Virus record (IMG/VR): IMGVR_UViG_3300028743_000015
Span: 1 to 38,183 of that record
Source: a virus
Lineage: Duplodnaviria; Caudoviricetes
Length of the DNA: 38,183 nucleotides
Strand: one strand, 5' to 3'
Part shown: piece after piece, positions 558-38,152 of the stretch
How the letters are laid out: the number at the start of each line of letters is the position of its first letter
Numbering within the stretch: position 1 is the first letter of the stretch
Position numbers and translations under genes: made by a program
The notes under the pieces: model-generated
Database searches by the model: none
The model's input: the letters and a program-made list of their open reading frames with translations, nothing else
What the model was told of the DNA's origin: nothing

Positions 558-971
558 TTACACGTCTTCGCGCGTGTCTATGTCTGCTAGGCGCGCCGCG
601 CTTCTTTCGAGCGCAGGAGGCAAGGCCATACCCCAAAAAGCGAACGCAGAACCAACTGCGTCGCGGGTGCTTATCCAAGCATCGTTTTCGCTATTGTAGC
701 TACCCCAAGTCGAGGGTATCGCGAAGGTTACCGCGTGCGCGGCACAGTATGTGATATACGCGCAAGCGGCCAAAGTAAGGGAGACACGGGCCCACACCCC
801 GTATGGCTTTCCCCCGAACCGATTGACGCGGTTCCAGCGTTTTTCGGAGGTGCCAACAGCTAGGCTTTGGTGAAACCACGCCGGTTTTAGGATTGCTGAA
901 GAGATGTAAAGCAGCCCATACGTGCCCAAAATCACTCGCGTTGCCGTTACCGCCGTGTCGAGGGCATTCAC
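558..971 (-). CDS. Hypothetical membrane protein (137 aa) coupled to cI
   Basis: GTG overlaps the cI stop (TAGTG); about three hydrophobic segments. Confidence 0.6.
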   Translation of the reverse strand: MNALDTAVTATRVILGTYGLLYISSAILKPAWFHQSLAVGTSEKRWNRVNRFGGKPYGVWARVSLTLAACAYITYCAAHAVTFAIPSTWGSYNSENDAWISTRDAVGSAFAFWGMALPPALERSAARLADIDTREDV

Positions 972-1570
972 TACACCAACCTTCCAAACCAGACGGGGCG
1001 CCCGATCACCTGCACTTCGTCGGCGGTGAAAACTTCGTCGCTATATTCGGTGTTGGTGGAGAACACCCGCAGGCCTTCGCGCGTTATCTCGACATTCTTG
1101 AGCAAATGCGCGTCGCCAATGCGCAGGAAGAAAGGCCCGCCGCCCATACGTCGGCAATCGGTGTCGCGCTTGTCGATGAGCACCTGATCGCCTTGCGTGA
1201 AGCGGGGCTCCATACTGGTGCCGCGCATTTCGACCATAAGGAAATCACTGGGCCGCCCGCGCAGGGTGCCCTCGATCAAAGAGCGGGGCAGCATGGCAAT
1301 CTCGCGGTCGCCATCGCCATTGCCCCCGCCGCCCATGCCACCGAAAGTCGGGAACACTTCGACCGCGACATAGGCGTTGGTGTCGGAGGACGCGTTGGTG
1401 TCGTGTTCTGCGAGAAGGCGCTCAAGGGGCGCTAGTTCGTAGGCTTTCAAGGGGCGGACTGCGCCCATGATCTTTACGGCTACTGTTCGCGACTTACCAA
1501 GCGCTTCCGCGATGGCGTCGTGCTTGATGCCTGCGGCTTTTAGGCGCGCGAGGAGAGCTGAAGGTTCCAT
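971..1570 (-). CDS. cI: Phage repressor, N-terminal HTH plus S24 (LexA/CI) peptidase domain
   Basis: HTH (HDAIAEALGKSRTVAVKIM), catalytic Ser motif RGTSMEP, Lys in LLKNV, C-terminal VIGRPVW; divergent from a Cro-like gene. Confidence 0.93.
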   Translation of the reverse strand: MEPSALLARLKAAGIKHDAIAEALGKSRTVAVKIMGAVRPLKAYELAPLERLLAEHDTNASSDTNAYVAVEVFPTFGGMGGGGNGDGDREIAMLPRSLIEGTLRGRPSDFLMVEMRGTSMEPRFTQGDQVLIDKRDTDCRRMGGGPFFLRIGDAHLLKNVEITREGLRVFSTNTEYSDEVFTADEVQVIGRPVWFGRLV

Positions 1571-17719: not shown

Positions 17720-19881
17720 TGGCGGAAGTTCCCTCTTACGGCGGCTTTAGGGCCGCGCCGCAAGGGCCTTCGGGCGCCTTTCTCACGGTGCCCGACGCGA
17801 CCGGCTTTGACCAGCCGTTGAAAGATTTGTCGCGCGCTAGTGACGCGGCATTTGCCGCAGGGCACCAGATTGCCGACGTGGTGCTCAAGGCGCAGCACGA
17901 CGCCAATCAGGTGCATGTCATGGATGCGACCAATCAGGGGCGCGAGGCAGCCCTTACCCTGACCTATGATCCGCAACAGGGGTATACCAACGTCAAGGGC
18001 AAGGACGTGCTCCCCACCGGGGGAACTCCCCTCGCGGTGGACTATGCCGGGCGCTACAAGGAAACACTGCGCTCTATCGCTGGTGGCCTTACCAACGACG
18101 AGCAACGCCAGCTTTTCGCGCAGCAATCGGCGCAGCTTATGAGCAGCTTCGAGGCGGGGGCTTTCGAACACGAGCAGCGCGAATGGCAAACATATTCGCA
18201 ATCGGTGTTTGATGGCGCTACGAAAATTTCCACCGAAAGCATTAAGAAAAACTACAGCAACCCCGCGATGATCGACACCGAAGTCGAGAATATCCGGGCG
18301 TCGGTGGCGGCCTCGGGCAAGCACCTCGGGCTGTCGGGCAACGATATCACCTACGCGCAGAACGCCAAGGTCAGCGGCGCGGTGACCGGCGCGATTGCCC
18401 AGGCGCTCGAAGCGCGCGACACGACCACGGCCAATGCCCTTTACCAGCGCTATAAATCCCACCTCGTTGCGGACGATGACCTAAGGGTTAAAGGCACTTT
18501 GCAGCAGGAAACGGCGGCTGGTGCGATCATGCAGGCGGCTGATATTGCCGACGGGATCGCGGCTGCACCGTCCACCACCACCGGTGGCGGGAAGGCCATT
18601 TTACCCGTTGCGGGCGCACGGATTACTTCGCGGTTTGGTGACGCCCGTGAAGGCGGCAAGACACACGAGGGGGCCGACCTTGCGGTGCCGGTGGGCACGC
18701 CGGTCAAGGCGCCCATGGCGGGCAAGGTCATTCGCGTGTGGGAGGATGCCGAGAACGGCAAGGCCGTGCGTATCCAGTTCTCTGACGGGTCGGTAGGGGG
18801 CTTCGCGCATCTTTCCGAGCAGGGCGTGCAGAATGGTGACCCCGTGACGCAGGGCCAAGTATTCGCCAAGTCTGGCAACACCGGTCACTCGACCGGGCCA
18901 CATTTGCACTACCGTCTTGAAAAGGGCGGGCAGCCAATTGACCCGCTTGCGGCTGGCGGAGGTGGCCCCGCTGTTGCGGCGCGCGCGGCGACGCTTGACG
19001 ATATGTGGGCCACCGCGCGCGCGGCGCTCGTGCAGCAAATGCCCGATCCGCGCCCAGAGGATATTCGCGCCCTGCGCGCCGAGGTCGATGCGCGATGGAA
19101 CCTGCACCAGAAGTCGAAAGCGGATAACGAGGACCAAGCCCTTGCTGGCGTCTATCGAGAGCTGGCGGGCAACGGGGGGAGCTATCTGGCGCTCTCGCCT
19201 TCCCAGCGTGCGGCTATTCCCGCCGACAAGCTGCCCAAGGTCATGGCCTTCGCCTCGGCTGCGCGCACCGCATTTGACCACGAGACGGGCGCGCAGGGTA
19301 TGGCCACCTATGCCCAGCTCGTGAGCGACCCACAGAAGCTCGCGGCCATGGGCGACGCGGACTTCCTGCATTTGCAGACGCAGTTTTCAAAGGCGGACTT
19401 TGGCCAGCTTGCGCGCGAACGCGGCAACCTGCGCCTTACGCTTGCCAAGGGCGTAGCCGCAGCAGCCAAGGACGCGGCGACGCTGAACCGCGAGGGGGCC
19501 AACCGCGCGGTCAATGAGCGACTTTTGTCGCTTGGCCTCTCCGCCAACCCCAAGCCCGACGACAATGACGCGCCGCGCGTGGCGGCTATTCGCATGACGG
19601 TCGACCGCGCGCTGCTATCGGCGCAGGCGGGGCTTGGGCGCAGGCTCACCGATGCCGAGACAGCGCAGACCGTGGACCGGCTGTTCACGGCCAATGCAAC
19701 GGGGTCGGGCTGGTTTAGCGCATATCAGGCGCCCGCGTTCTCTATTGGCAAGGGTAGCATCCCGAGCGTGGACCGCGAGGCCATCCGCCAATCGTTCGCT
19801 GCGAGGGGTAACCCCAACCCAACTGACGCAGACGTTCTCGCCGCTTGGTATGCCAAGAATACGACAGGACAACAGAAATAA
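17719..19881 (+). CDS. Middle ejection protein with inserted M23 metallopeptidase domain
   Basis: Helical Ala/Gln-rich flanks; M23 at about 18601-18948 with HEGAD (HxxxD) and STGPHLHY (HxH). Confidence 0.88.
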   Translation: MAEVPSYGGFRAAPQGPSGAFLTVPDATGFDQPLKDLSRASDAAFAAGHQIADVVLKAQHDANQVHVMDATNQGREAALTLTYDPQQGYTNVKGKDVLPTGGTPLAVDYAGRYKETLRSIAGGLTNDEQRQLFAQQSAQLMSSFEAGAFEHEQREWQTYSQSVFDGATKISTESIKKNYSNPAMIDTEVENIRASVAASGKHLGLSGNDITYAQNAKVSGAVTGAIAQALEARDTTTANALYQRYKSHLVADDDLRVKGTLQQETAAGAIMQAADIADGIAAAPSTTTGGGKAILPVAGARITSRFGDAREGGKTHEGADLAVPVGTPVKAPMAGKVIRVWEDAENGKAVRIQFSDGSVGGFAHLSEQGVQNGDPVTQGQVFAKSGNTGHSTGPHLHYRLEKGGQPIDPLAAGGGGPAVAARAATLDDMWATARAALVQQMPDPRPEDIRALRAEVDARWNLHQKSKADNEDQALAGVYRELAGNGGSYLALSPSQRAAIPADKLPKVMAFASAARTAFDHETGAQGMATYAQLVSDPQKLAAMGDADFLHLQTQFSKADFGQLARERGNLRLTLAKGVAAAAKDAATLNREGANRAVNERLLSLGLSANPKPDDNDAPRVAAIRMTVDRALLSAQAGLGRRLTDAETAQTVDRLFTANATGSGWFSAYQAPAFSIGKGSIPSVDREAIRQSFAARGNPNPTDADVLAAWYAKNTTGQQK

Positions 19882-22800
19882 TGCCGGGTAATCCCTATGA
19901 CGACGCGGTAGCGCAGGTGATGGGCGTGCAACAGTCTGGGGCCAGTGCTGCCCTGTCTAACGCGGCCAGCCTCGACCCGGACACCGAAGCGCGCAACCGG
20001 CAGCTCGCGCGCACTACGGGCCTGCCGATGCCGACAGTCCGCAACATGCCCAAGGAAGCAGAGGTTGCCGCTCGGCAGCAGGCAGCGCGCGATTTTCCGG
20101 TGCTATCTGCCTTGGCGTCGTCGCCGAAGACCGCGACGTGGGTCGCGCAGGGCGACAATGCGGCGGTGTCGCATGACGACGTTTGGACGCTCGCGGGCAT
20201 TGGCAAACAGCTAAGCGAGGCTGCAAGTGATTTCACCCCAAGAAACCTTGGTAAATCTTTGCTCGCTGGGCTCTACAGCACGGCGAGCGGCGTGGCCGGG
20301 GGAGTTCGTGGCGCGGAAGATTTCGCGGATAAATACGATCCATTTTCCTATCTCGACCGGGCAGTGCTGGGGCGATCCTTGCACAGCATCGTTGCCGACC
20401 GGCTTGCGGGCGAAGGGCGGCAACTGTCAGATTTAGCCGCCGCGTCCCGGCCAAAAGCCAAATCGCAATTTGGGCAAGATGTGCTGTCGGGGGTAGAAAG
20501 TATCCCCGGTTCGCTTGCGGCGATGGGAGTGACTGCCGCCACCGGCAACCCCTTCGCGGGCGCGGCGGTGCTCGGCGGGGTCACAGGCGGGCAGTCTTAC
20601 GCGCAGGCGCGCGACCAAGACGGCATGACGCTGGAAGGCGGGCTTACGAAATCCGCCATCGACGCGGCTATCGAAACCGCTACCGAGATAATCCCCGAGA
20701 AGTCCGTTGCTAAATTCACCCACGGAAAGAGTGGATTTGGCAAGTTCATGTTTGAGCTGGTCGGCGGCGAGGTGTTGGGCGAACAGGTCGCGACGCTGGG
20801 GCAGGATTATAACCAATGGGTTATGGCGGACCAGAACAAGGGCAAGACCTTTGACCAATACACCAGCGAGATTGTTCCCCACGCGATCTCGACGCTAACC
20901 GCGACCCTCACCACCGCCGGAGCCATGGGCAGTTTCGCGGGGGCCTTGCGCACGGTCGACCGGGTTTCGGGCCGCGCCGTCGTGCGCGAGGAACGCGCAG
21001 CGCAAGCCGAGGCCGCCGCGCAGCACTTCGACGACCTTGCAAAACTCGCGGAGGCATCAAGGCTGCGCGAGCGTGATGCAGTGAGCTTTCACGATTTTGT
21101 GCAGCACGCGGCGGAAGACGGCCCGGTCGAGGCGGTCTATGTCAGCCCCGAAAAGCTGGGTGAAGCTCTCAACCAGAGCGGACTTGATCCCGAACAGGCA
21201 CAGGCGGCGCAGGCCGCCGTTGCTCCGCATGTCGCCGAGGCGTTGGCCAACGGCACTGACGTTCGCTTGCCGGTGGCGGATTTCGCCACATACATTGCGC
21301 CCACCGCCGCAGGTAAGGCGCTGCTCGACCACCTCAAGGCCGACCCGGACGGGATGAGCCGCGAGGAGGCCAAGCAGTGGATGGAAACCAAGGGCGATGA
21401 CCTCAGGCGCGAGGTCGAGCAGACCCTTGCCGAGCATTTGGCGGACGCGCAGTTTCGCGCCTCGGGCGAAGTGGTGCAAGCCAAGATCGCCGAGCAGCTC
21501 CACAATGCCAACCGATTTACGCGCGAGGTGAACGAGACGAACGCCACCGGTATGGCGGCGTTCTATTCGACCATGGCAGCACGTATGGGGCTCACGCCCG
21601 AACAGCTCTACGAGCGTATGCCCATTCGCATCCAAGCCGAACCGGTGGCGGGTGAGGCGCTTTCGCAGCGAGACACACGCGTTGCAAGCGCTATTGAACA
21701 GGGGTATCTTACCCCCGCCAAATGGGAGGCGTTGACAGATGCTCGACTTGGACAAACTGGCGGACATGTTGACGCCCGAGGAAATGGCGCAAGTGCGGGT
21801 GAACATGGACGCACGAACCAAGTTCAACCGGAAGAATTGGGGCGCCAAGGTGGACAAGGCGAAGGACAGCGAAACGCTACGCCGACTGGCACGCAATTTG
21901 CCGACGCCGACCGAGGCGGACTTGCCACCTTCTATCACGGCACGCGCGATAGCATCGGGGGCTTTGACCTTGGACACCCCAACCGAAAAGATGCCGGGTG
22001 GCTCGGGCGAGGGGTCTACCTAACCAATGACCCGGTGCTCGCGCGCAACTATGCCGAGCGCAAGAAAGGCCCCGGTGCGCCGACGGTTCTGCCGCTGCAC
22101 ATCAAGCTTGAAAACCCTTATCACGCGACCTCTGCCGAGAAGCAGGGGCTACGGTTTAGCGCGCCGGAGGAAATAGCCCGATGGACCGACCGGCTTATCG
22201 CCAAGGGCCACGACGGCGTGGTGCTCGACCTTGGCAATGGAACCCACGAAATCGCGGTGTTTGACCCCGCCAACATCCGTTCGCCCGAAGCAGAGTTTGA
22301 CCCCGCCAAGTCCCATAGCAATGACCTGCTGGCACAGTCCCCGTTTTACTCTCCGCTTGAGCGCGCGGTCGAGCAAAGCAAAACTGCTAAGGCATCGGGC
22401 CAGCAGTGGCTGGCTACACTATCAAAAGCAGCGGGCGTAAAGAAAGAAGAGCTGGAATGGACGGGGCTGCCCGAGTGGCTGACCTCGCGCGAGGTAGCGT
22501 TTACACGCGACGAGGTGCAAGCCTTCGTGCGCGCAGGTGGCGTCCAAGTCGACGAGGTTGTGCTCGGCGGTGTTGACCAGGCGGCGGTTGCTGAGCGAGC
22601 CGGTGAGTTGCGGCAGGAGTATATCGAAGAGCAACTGCGCGAATTTGACGAGGAGTATAGCGACGAGTATGTTGACTACCCCCATATCGCCGAGGAAGAA
22701 GACGAGGACGGCAACCCCGTCTACGAAGTGGGCGGCGAGACCTACGGTATTTTAGAAGCCGCGCAGGACGCCGCCGATAGTCTGCACGACGAGCTGCGCG

Positions 22801-34030: not shown

Positions 34031-34846
34031 ATGAAAGAACAAGAAGAGAACATTTGCAATCTTGCCTCCGTGGCGCCCACGCGTCCGCCGGCGCCATGGA
34101 TGGGGGGCAAGCGCGCCCTGGCCGGGTGCTTGTCCGATCTGATCGCCACCATCCCGCACCAGCGCTATGTCGAGCCCTTCGTCGGCATGGGTGGGGTATT
34201 TTTCCGGCGAAAACACCGACCAAAGCTGGAAGTGATCAACGACATCAACCGCGAGGTCGTGAACCTGTTTCGCCTTCTGCAGCGCCACTATCAGCAGCTG
34301 CTTGATGTCCTGAAATGGCAAGTCTGTTCGCGCGCCGAGTTCCAGCGCCTGCTCAAGGTTGAGCCTGAAACTCTGACCGATCTCGAACGCGCCGCGCGCT
34401 TCCTCTATCTCCAGAGATCCAGCTTTGGGGGTAAGGTCGCGGGGCAGACCTTCGGCATTTCCTATGACGGCGGCGCCCGATTCAATCTGACCAAGTTGGT
34501 GCCCCTGCTCGAGGATGTGCACGAGCGGCTGGCCGGCGTGGTGATCGAATGCCTACCCTATGCCGAATGCATCCGCCGCTATGATAGCCGACCGGGCACG
34601 CTGTTTTACCTTGATCCGCCCTACTGGGGCTGCACCGATGACTACGGCCGCAATATCTTTGCTCCGGCCGACTTCGAGGTGCTGCGTGACATCCTCGCCA
34701 ACCTGAATGGGCGATTCGTGCTATCGATCAACGATGTGCCGGAGATCCGCGAGATCTTTGCGGGCTTTACCTTGCACGAGGTCGGCTTGCATTATGGCAT
34801 CGGCGGTGGCCAGCGCCCGGCACGCGAGCTCATCATTACCAATTAG
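34031..34846 (+). CDS. DNA adenine methyltransferase (D12/Dam-like class), orphan
   Basis: PWMGGK, YVEPFVGMGGVFF (motif I), EVINDIN, FYLDPPY (motif IV). Confidence 0.93.
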   Translation: MKEQEENICNLASVAPTRPPAPWMGGKRALAGCLSDLIATIPHQRYVEPFVGMGGVFFRRKHRPKLEVINDINREVVNLFRLLQRHYQQLLDVLKWQVCSRAEFQRLLKVEPETLTDLERAARFLYLQRSSFGGKVAGQTFGISYDGGARFNLTKLVPLLEDVHERLAGVVIECLPYAECIRRYDSRPGTLFYLDPPYWGCTDDYGRNIFAPADFEVLRDILANLNGRFVLSINDVPEIREIFAGFTLHEVGLHYGIGGGQRPARELIITN

Positions 34847-35136
34847 GCCGCCGCCTCGATTCGCATCCGAAGGCCCAACGCTGGAAGCACCTTGAGCATC
34901 GTTTCCAGCGTTGGGTTTCCATCTTCGCTGAATGCCCGGTAAAGCGCCTGGCGCTTGATCCCCGTGGCGCTGGCCACATCGCTCATCCCGCGTGCACGCG
35001 CGACAATCCCGATCGCCTTCGCGACGATATGCGCATCTCCGGATGCAACAGCATCGGCCAGCAGCTCGGCTTGGTCCTCTGGCTCGGTAAGAAACTCTGC
35101 CGCGTCAAAACGACTCAGTTCGATAGTCATTTTCAT
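34843..35136 (-). CDS. Addiction-module antidote, HTH antitoxin (HI1420-like); start may be 35130
   Basis: FDAAEFL...AIGIVARARGMSDVASATGIKRQALYRAFSEDGNPTLETMLKV. Confidence 0.92.
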   Translation of the reverse strand: MKMTIELSRFDAAEFLTEPEDQAELLADAVASGDAHIVAKAIGIVARARGMSDVASATGIKRQALYRAFSEDGNPTLETMLKVLPALGLRMRIEAAA

Positions 35137-35161
35137 TTCCCTTCACATGTGGCGGCCGACC

Positions 35162-35452
35162 TTATGGTATCTGTGCCGCCATCTCCTTTGCCTTGACGAT
35201 ATCACGATCTTGGCTTCCCTTGTCGCCGCCGATCAGCAGGATGATAAGGGTCTGGCCGCGCAGGGTATAATAGAGCCGGTAGCCCGGCCCGAAGTCGATC
35301 TTCGCTTCGGAAACGCCGTTGCCCAGACTGCGGATGTTGCCCATCAGACCGAGTTCCATGCGCGCAATCCGCCCAGCGATTTTCGACTGTGCTTTGCGGT
35401 CACGGAGGCCGTTGAACCAGTCGGAGAAGGAAGGGGTTTGCTGCGTTTCCAT
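35162..35452 (-). CDS. Addiction-module killer, RelE-superfamily toxin (HI1419/Gp49-like)
   Basis: FSDWFNGLRDRKAQSKI...GNGVSEAKIDFGPGYRLYY...LLIGGDKGSQDRDI; toxin upstream of antitoxin. Confidence 0.92.
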   Translation of the reverse strand: METQQTPSFSDWFNGLRDRKAQSKIAGRIARMELGLMGNIRSLGNGVSEAKIDFGPGYRLYYTLRGQTLIILLIGGDKGSQDRDIVKAKEMAAQIP

Positions 35453-35455
35453 GCC

Positions 35456-35502
35456 GTCACATATAAATGACAGGTGGGGAACTGTCAATATATAAATGAC
35501 AG
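35456..35502 (-). promoter_or_regulatory. TA promoter with two GTCA-N8/9-TGAC operators
   Basis: TTGACA (35488-35483), 17 nt, TATATG (35465-35460); palindromes at 35456-35471 and 35482-35502 sharing ATATAAATGACAG. Confidence 0.78.
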
Positions 35503-35611: not shown

Positions 35612-35688
35612 TGGTAGCGGAGGAGGGACTCGAACCCCCGACACGCGGATTATGATTCCGCTGCTCTAACCAGCTGAGCTACTCCGCC
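35612..35688 (-). tRNA. tRNA-Met (CAT), elongator type; probable prophage integration site
   Basis: GGCGGAGTAGCTCAGCTGGTTAGAGCAGCGGAATCATAATCCGCGTGTCGGGGGTTCGAGTCCCTCCTCCGCTACCA: cloverleaf, CAT anticodon, encoded CCA, no initiator C1:A72 mismatch. Confidence 0.93.
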
Positions 35689-37177: not shown

Positions 37178-38152
37178 TCAGATTTCGCCGCGCGCGCGCC
37201 GGATGGCGAACCAGTGTTCCACATTACGGTTATGCTCGGCCAGCGTGTCGGCAAAAGCGTGGCCGCCGGTGCCATCGGCCACCATATACAGCGCCTTGGT
37301 CTTGGCCGGGTGCAACACAGCCTCGATCGAATCGCGGCCCGGATTGGTGATCGGCCCCTTGGGCAGGCCGGTCATGGAATAGGTGTTGTAATCGTTCTTC
37401 GCCTGAATCTCGCTCTGGCGGATGCGGCGGCCCAGCGGCTTGCCCTTGGTGATCGGGTAGATGATCGTGGGATCGGCCTGCAACATGATATGCTCGCGCA
37501 GGCGGTTCGAATAGAGCCCGGCCACCATCGCGCGCTCGGACGGCTTGCCGGTTTCCTTCTCGACGATGGAGGCCAGCACCAGCGCCTCCTCGGGCGTCTT
37601 GGCAACCGTGTCCGGCCCGCGCTTGGCCCACAGGTCGGCCAGTGTCCTGGTCATGGCTGCCTGCATCCGCGCCAGCACCGCCGCGCGCGATTCGCCCGCC
37701 TTGATGTCATAGGTATCGGGCAGGATGCTGCCCTCTGTGGGCGCCTCGGCTTGCCCCGTCAGGAAGGGCTGCGCGACAAGGCGCTCCCGCACCATAATGC
37801 TGGGCAAGCCTTCGGGAATGGTCACAAAGCGGCGGATGGCTTCGTTGCCGGACAGGATCGCCACAATCTGACGCTCACTGGCGCCCTTGGGCAGCAGGAA
37901 CTCGCCCGCCTTCACCGCCGCGCCGCTGCTGAGCAAGCGGGCGTGGAAGCGGAACGCGCGAGCGGAATAGATCGCGCCGGATTTTTGCAGTTTGGTCGCC
38001 ACCATCGGCAGGCTGGCGCCATCGGGCACCACAAAGGCGCGATCCCCGGCCAAAGGCCCCGCGCCATACCAGCCGTGCAGGACGCTGCCCACCACCAGCA
38101 CAGCGGCCAGCGGCAGGGCAAGGAGGGCGAGTCTGACCGGCTTCTTCTTCAT
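37178..38152 (-). CDS. mltG: Endolytic transglycosylase MltG (host gene)
   Basis: N-terminal TM, VTIPEG, EGSILPDTY, LASIVEKET, LQADPTIIY, YNTYSMTGLPKGPITNPG. Confidence 0.96.
   Translation of the reverse strand: MKKKPVRLALLALPLAAVLVVGSVLHGWYGAGPLAGDRAFVVPDGASLPMVATKLQKSGAIYSARAFRFHARLLSSGAAVKAGEFLLPKGASERQIVAILSGNEAIRRFVTIPEGLPSIMVRERLVAQPFLTGQAEAPTEGSILPDTYDIKAGESRAAVLARMQAAMTRTLADLWAKRGPDTVAKTPEEALVLASIVEKETGKPSERAMVAGLYSNRLREHIMLQADPTIIYPITKGKPLGRRIRQSEIQAKNDYNTYSMTGLPKGPITNPGRDSIEAVLHPAKTKALYMVADGTGGHAFADTLAEHNRNVEHWFAIRRARGEI

Follow-up and report, generated by a model that had tools for sequence, protein, structure and literature searches.

A small +1-frame gene nested ahead of a predicted ADP-ribosyltransferase domain in a giant phage gene: a candidate cognate inhibitor

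Introduction

Can a giant phage gene carry, in a second reading frame, a small gene whose product acts on the enzyme domain encoded beside it? The question is raised by the window analysed here, a 38,183-nucleotide stretch of viral DNA (IMG/VR record IMGVR_UViG_3300028743_000015), in which a small open reading frame lies out of frame just ahead of an ADP-ribosyltransferase (ART) domain. An earlier note on this DNA had read the arrangement as a nested effector and immunity system.

Iyer et al. (2017, PMC5512222) predicted that polyvalent-protein ARTs with an H-Y-D motif enter the cell by injection and modify proteins of the host, and the same prediction of injection is made in PMC9503650; the available portion of PMC5512222 shows no toxicity for the family. 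Two phage systems combine a toxin with a binding partner. MuF proteins are virion-head proteins carrying polymorphic toxins, specific to temperate phages, and a small immunity protein, IapK, binds the toxin (PMC12226406, available portion). The antibacterial prophage ART Bxa is blocked by a binding immunity protein, Bsi/BAH (PMC11699363, available portion).

Results

The phage and its giant gene

Judged from its sequence, the window is a BPP-1-like podovirus, with genes in the order terminase, portal, capsid, M23 protein, giant gene and tail protein. The features that define this context are the following.

971..1570, minus strand: CI-like repressor (Pfam Peptidase_S24), a temperate-phage context
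19881..28340, plus strand: giant gene of 2819 codons (open reading frame list) for a Bbp10-like polyvalent virion protein of the ejection type
19944..20222, plus strand: LPD22 domain of the host protein (Pfam PF18834, 58 bits)
21912..22283, plus strand, host frame: ART-PolyVal domain (Pfam PF18760, 44.3 bits, cut-off 31.2)
35612..35688, minus strand: tRNA-Met, likely the prophage-host junction
37178..38152: mltG/YceG-like gene at the right end of the window, beyond the tRNA-Met

The repressor, the tRNA-Met and the mltG-like gene together make it likely that the window is a prophage and the phage temperate. A toxin-antitoxin pair (34843-35488, minus strand; HI1420-type antidote and PHROG toxin) adjoins a Dam-type methylase (34031-34846) just before the tRNA-Met.

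The ATG of the giant gene at 19881 overlaps the stop of the preceding gene. A virion role of its product is suggested by its place among late virion genes, with portal, capsid and M23 protein before it and the tail protein after it. The product is a large multi-domain protein of 2819 aa in which LPD22 and ART-PolyVal both score above the Pfam cut-off. Its two ends are 38% and 45% identical to Bbp10 of Bordetella phage BPP-1 (BLASTP), and BPP-1 has other sequence at the site of the nested gene and the ART.

The ART motif residues are H (21936), Y (22017) and D (22212), plus an E (22248); they are invariant in 33 ARTs of the nested type, the D being matched to the strand-5 D of PMC5512222 by position only. 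The model of the domain (pLDDT 86.3) matched tankyrase and diphtheria-toxin-like ART folds in Foldseek, and we regard it as a predicted ADP-ribosyltransferase with a PARP-like fold, its activity and toxicity being predictions. The top Foldseek match was chain B of PDB 9k3a, from the cyanophage A4 pre-ejectosome (E 3.9e-4, TM 0.56). No sequence match links the ART to this chain, and the available part of the paper on the A4 ejectosome (PMC12002296) mentions neither an ART nor ADP-ribosylation. The chain may hold an unrecognised ART-like domain; the fold match is a lead only.

A gene in the +1 frame

The hexamer pair TTGCAA-17-TATCTT, the GGAGG run, the ATG at 21739 and the FYHGT stretch at 21930, from which a hidden gene had been proposed, are all present as placed in the earlier note, and its third-position G/C count (41/50 codons in the nested frame, 17/50 in the host frame) is exact. 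The nested locus comprises the following features.

21682..21710, plus strand: promoter-like hexamer pair TTGCAA-17-TATCTT, 8/12 matches, of doubtful function
21687..21738, plus strand: host-frame cap motif; its W-E codons provide the nested ribosome-binding site
21725..21729, plus strand: Shine-Dalgarno GGAGG of the nested gene (duplex energy with the anti-SD -10.2 kcal/mol)
21739..22023, plus strand: nested +1 open reading frame of 94 codons, coding signal at about 21739-21918
21820..21906, plus strand: two-helix family core, consensus F...W...L..A.T.EE..AL..ELP (alignments A3 and A7)

The 94-aa frame exists as described, and it is gene-like only over its first 56-60 codons or so: the coding signal ends near 21900, which limits the protein-like part to about 56-60 residues, and the 3' part is the ART read out of frame. 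Eleven other genes of the window served to train a codon model, whose score for +1 coding peaked at 11.0 at 21735, the highest of 281 host-gene windows (mean -12.9, sd 5.6), while the best +1 window in any of 11 other phage genes reached 4.6. Nine GGAGG runs occur in the host gene, and the one at 21725-21729 alone precedes a +1 ATG; at other nested loci the ribosome-binding site likewise falls on host codons for W-E, G-D/E-W or W-R-W. Length was rejected as evidence, since the host gene has five +1 frames of at least 94 codons and 99% of 200 synonymous recodings of it hold one or more.

The two frames were also compared for selection. The nearest orthologue, L174, is 54% identical in the nested frame and 26% in the host frame, a comparison biased by an alignment made on the nested frame. 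Frame-blind DNA alignments of 11 disjoint pairs gave 190, 159 and 259 differences at the three nested codon positions (566 of each), and the ART in its own frame gave the same pattern (411, 326 and 719). Selection on the host frame would be expected to make the middle count the largest; the nested pattern thus indicates that selection acts on the nested frame and that the host frame only stays open. The hidden gene is therefore under purifying selection in its own frame, and on all these signals we take the giant gene to contain a real nested gene in +1.

Promoter and frameshift signals

The idea that the gene has its own promoter fared less well, so that the earlier note's overprinted gene with a promoter is partly confirmed as an observation. 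The promoter-like pair, at 8/12 matches, fell below the threshold of a scan that listed one site against 1.8 expected. The null was made by synonymous recoding of the upstream host codons; against it the pair had p=0.02, for a site picked after the fact. The pair is absent from L174, and 5 of 37 nested loci had promoter-like sites with p<0.05, at scattered distances; the pooled excess over the 37 loci, which are not independent, was slight (Stouffer p=0.0005). An internal promoter is thus possible, as something other than a conserved part of the locus, and with no conserved promoter the proposed expression in the lysogen loses support of its own. In seven loci (L138, L144, L153, L202, L077, L162 and L190) a -10-like hexamer lies about 55-70 bases before the nested ATG, on K-L-x-Y host codons, some with the rare CTA codon; in this subgroup it may be a real internal promoter. 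A slippery heptamer was found in 5 of the 37 loci, at scattered positions, and none in the window's nested locus.

How often the nested gene accompanies the ART

The ART was searched in viral, metagenome and genome collections and in named phages, two of the scans contributing their best 80 matches only. At least 238 ART starts in at least 109 clusters at 80% identity were gathered, the window's own record (L057) having been dropped. The strict set consisted of 91 clusters with a score of at least 55 and 100 upstream codons. Among the matches listed, an open +1 ATG frame preceded by an SD-like run of at least 4 was found in 25 of the 91 clusters, as against none in +2; a positive +1 codon score was found in 28 of the 91, compared with 0.8% of background windows, and in none of 40 clusters with an ordinary ART cap.

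Curation by eye gave at least 37 nested loci, three of them with broken ARTs; L189, nested by score, was not nested on inspection. Among the matches listed, a +1 gene occupies the same site in 34 of 85 ART clusters of score at least 100, and in 51, whose ARTs retain H, Y and D, no nested gene lies at that site (in the DNA around the ART). These residues are invariant in both groups of ARTs, and the non-nested ones thus do not look dead. The insert is absent from close relatives that share the architecture (L013, L014 and L016). An ART had been assumed to need a cognate inhibitor; the 51 clusters weaken that premise. As for the expected co-occurrence of promoter, Shine-Dalgarno and open +1 frame with the ART, the nested homologues keep the open frame with its start and ribosome-binding site, and the promoter-like pair is not kept in the nearest orthologue.

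Several neighbouring observations were made in these loci. In L003 a protein-like nested frame with its own Shine-Dalgarno lies at about 1600-1800, in the 3' end of the upstream gene, and the ART gene downstream starts separately. In L169 (= L252), at 2379-2590, a nested gene with an early stop stands before an ART cut short, both having decayed together. Elsewhere in these giant genes, in front of other domains, the codon bias also shifts to +1 over protein-like stretches, including in lytic-looking phages: L185 and L201 at about 4445 and 5200, L232 at about 4440, L243 at about 4800, L193 at about 4295, L143 at about 5230, L145 at about 1080, L192 at about 155, L160 at about 1145, L137 at about 975 and L152 at about 1945. 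The domains behind them we take to be a second ART-like H-Y-S stretch and a RadC/JAB-like stretch.

Exchange of the small gene with the ART

The proposal that the small gene and the ART form one in-frame cassette was borne out by pairwise comparisons, nearest neighbours and the ART tree. L002 and L017 are alike upstream (0.91) and share the nested start, whereas their small proteins (0.09) and ARTs (0.41) differ; the window and L174 have small protein and ART in common and a different next domain. For 17 of 27 loci the nearest neighbour was the same whether judged by the small protein or by the ART, compared with 8, 9 and 5 of 27 for the cap, the upstream flank and the downstream flank. Overall distances correlated weakly (rho 0.16 for small protein and ART, 0.18 for small protein and upstream flank), and L150 and L184 are a counter-example, with similar ARTs (0.76) and flanks (0.89 and 0.90) and dissimilar small proteins (0.18). 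On a quick ART tree the nested label changed 4 times, against 27 when shuffled, and a branch with support 96 separated two groups of rows, one with 49 non-nested and 2 nested members, the other with 32 nested members and 2 that are non-nested. Five clusters with fewer than 80 upstream codons (L151, L070, L062, L118 and L003) are omitted from this tree; four of them look nested. By these comparisons the small gene moves with its ART from one giant protein to another.

Four close copies of the cassette (L141, L145, L146 and L148) lie on different contigs of one genome. The record L017 (MW749009.1) carries the label Bacillus phage, and its DNA and that of L002 are about 90% alike; L002 is found in a bin labelled Desulfuromonas as well (L155). 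A wrong host label is probable for one of the two.

The small-protein family

AlphaFold2 gave the window's small protein four helices (pLDDT 84.9, pTM 0.56), the last two of which are common to 17 aligned loci. A profile of the small protein, used by itself to search 1.84 billion proteins, found 77 representatives (E<=0.001), mostly of 34-110 aa and some with tandem copies. Tails were compared for 68 of them, short and not identical to the curated set, although some may be near-copies of it: 26 of the 68 are the +1 reading of an ART start (at least 8 bits), against 2 of 1360 shuffles. Seen from the side of the small protein, too, the family is thus linked to the ART, with at least 26 of the 68 continuing into the start of one, and by its profile the window's protein is a member of an uncatalogued two-helix family tied to this ART clade. 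One representative, P0060, has the small domain in frame with the start of an ART that is broken; no intact in-frame fusion of small domain and ART was found among the 77.

Fold searches with the small protein returned no match, and the Atlas none that was usable, recognition being low. Against PDB sequences the family profile gave weak Prp8 matches only (best E 0.003), taken as chance; Pfam gave 2 weak single matches among 64 members and PHROGs none. When the window's 56-aa protein was itself the query, one near-identical called protein (P0001) was retrieved and no locus in viral contigs; pattern scans with two family alignments gave no locus there either. The family is rare: 401 genomes of one order yielded one true match, in an already-known genome, and one chance match (L250, rejected because it lies inside a sigma-factor gene), and a profile search of 400 genomes of a class found none. 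Several unrelated-looking types of small protein occupy the same site in other loci. Immunity proteins are often small, helical and net acidic; the small proteins here are net acidic in 29 of 34 cases, the window's own having a charge of +2, and the charges of small protein and ART are weakly complementary (rho -0.29, p=0.09).

Lifestyle and chromosomal remnants

The proposed link to lysogeny found support: an integrase or S24 repressor is present in 10 of 12 nested and 1 of 20 non-nested records, in a sample of 32 chosen for length that is confounded by kinship, the 20 non-nested records coming from 13 clusters. The trait runs along one branch of the ART tree, which brings the comparison close to a single contrast. 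The two nested records with neither gene are 37% and 41% complete, and one is classed as a provirus. Cultured-isolate genomes among the matches listed were nested in 8 of 8 cases.

Remnants were sought with the family profile in five genome samples of 190-401 genomes each. The profile was rare, except in the family of G831 (Nitrosospira), where 8 of 190 genomes matched. In none of 15 chromosomal matches examined, three of them already known via ART fragments, was there a whole ART or giant gene. Nine keep the start of the ART, up to 63 of 130 profile positions, and 13 have host-frame stops just upstream; in 14 the first 30 codons of the small gene are free of stops, one of these being without its ATG. 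As the remnants were found with a profile of the small gene, this last count favours intact small genes. In L262 and L268 the small gene is fused to another domain of 130 aa, with no ART nearby. From the pattern of decay the remnants look like orphan immunity; neutral decay is the alternative. A fusion of the L262/L268 type is annotated as hypothetical in Nitrosospira multiformis. Up to three remnants per genome occur in L251-L270 (genomes of the family of G831, G833 and G1502), with one tandem pair, L260/L266.

Discussion

What the nested gene does can be approached from its position, inheritance and distribution. We think it rather probable, if only just, that the small protein is a cognate inhibitor of the neighbouring predicted ART, and the earlier note's overall interpretation is to that extent partly supported. 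Both proteins would be translated from one late mRNA, with perhaps a low level of the small one in the lysogen, and the small one would block the ART in cells that assemble virions or harbour the prophage. The giant protein would then be packaged and ejected without it, leaving the ART active in a newly infected cell until inhibitor is made there. With the inhibitor written into the linker, recombination that moves the ART to another polyvalent scaffold would carry the partner along, and lytic-looking relatives lacking the gene would be explained because it is the temperate phage that needs a surviving host. Against an inhibitor speak the swap in L150/L184, the unrelated types of small protein, the 51 of 85 ARTs with no nested gene and the nested genes ahead of other domains in lytic-looking phages.

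Much of that same evidence would be expected if the locus were simply a tolerant linker in which a real small gene is inherited by linkage and has a job of its own, such as counter-defence or superinfection exclusion. Unrelated-looking proteins at one site, a small protein swapped under a similar ART, an ART clade most of whose members lack the gene, and the L262 and L268 fusions with no ART nearby all fit such cargo. Its rarity in the 401-genome and 400-genome samples, the members that run into the ART start and nearest neighbours that track the ART more than any flank do not, and we hold this explanation to be unlikely. Those last links to the ART would serve equally well a partner that does not inhibit, namely a chaperone, packaging aid or activator, perhaps replacing a split N-terminal cap segment; in three cap types the gene indeed follows the cap motif and precedes the first strand of the ART. 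Such a partner leaves both the temperate bias and the chromosomal small genes lacking a whole ART unexplained, and we rate it as somewhat more unlikely again.

A different use of the overlap would be a programmed frameshift, in which translation starts at the nested ATG and slips into the host frame, yielding either a short ART in soluble form or a C-terminal portion of the giant product. The nested frame overlaps the ART start in most loci, and P0060 joins the two in one frame, albeit with a broken ART; the scattered slippery heptamers, none of them in the window, and the lack of intact fusions among the 77 representatives make this reading very improbable. Least probable of all is a chance frame in a low-complexity linker, or the dead relic of a captured gene. 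Frames of this length in +1 are common in this GC-rich gene; a 25 to 0 split between the +1 and +2 frames among the 91 clusters of matches listed and substitutions like those of a gene under purifying selection count against it, as does the confident helical model, which is weak evidence alone for so short a protein.

The arrangement resembles several known systems in part. In lambda, Rz1 is embedded in Rz as a same-strand, out-of-frame gene whose product partners that of the host gene; the Rz/Rz1 pair is a fixed two-gene lysis unit and not a swappable effector cassette. The ShiLan case (PMC11855218, available portion) is likewise an out-of-frame gene, for an HNH enzyme in a phage methylase, inserted in frame and forming a loop in the host frame; that gene is a selfish homing nuclease, whereas here a helical protein of 35-75 aa is tied to the neighbouring domain. 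An endonuclease of the ShiLan type was not recognised in the all-helical 60-aa model, which gave no nuclease, family or PDB match. MuF (PMC12226406) shares an enzymatic toxin domain in a virion protein, a small partner and temperate phages; its toxin is C-terminal and its immunity genes are separate and downstream in the part of the source available, whereas the ART here is internal with the candidate partner nested upstream in +1, and inhibition, shown for MuF, is here a proposal. Bxa is also a prophage-encoded ART, but Bxa and Bsi are products of separate genes and Bxa is a secreted fitness factor (PMC11699363, available portion), whereas here the ART is a domain of an ejection-type protein and the inhibitor only a candidate. 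Set against the usual polymorphic toxin-immunity pair, the small gene is tightly linked to the ART and exchanged with it, L150/L184 being the counter-example; not every ART is accompanied by such a gene at this site, and the gene is neither downstream nor separate.

The polyvalent proteins of PMC5512222 have the same giant multi-domain form in the virion region, with LPD22 and an H-Y-D ART. In the portion of that paper available no immunity or nested gene is described; the words 'overlap' and 'frameshift' are absent, and 'nested' refers to a hairpin fold. A search of mostly non-subscription literature, the supplements of Iyer et al. not included, found no paper on nested genes in polyvalent proteins or on their pairing with the ART.

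The ART has been called the commonest protein-modifying domain of polyvalent proteins, with an activity that is only predicted. If it does have a natural cognate inhibitor, the domain could be cloned and tested, and there would be an answer to how a virion protein loaded with an enzyme can be made without harm to the producing cell. The nested gene also explains the odd Gly/Arg/Gln-rich 'linkers' of giant proteins, and it defines an unannotated family of small proteins, which are lost in gene calling wherever the giant gene is intact. A broader reading, which taken jointly we find possible but rather doubtful, is that polyvalent proteins are swappable effector arrays with +1 inhibitors hidden in their linkers, that in temperate phages the ART inhibitor silences the injected enzyme and lets a cell enter or remain in lysogeny, and that bacteria such as Nitrosospira retain orphans as ready-made immunity to the injected ART. 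Such chromosomal orphan copies would add a new type of candidate immunity against phages.
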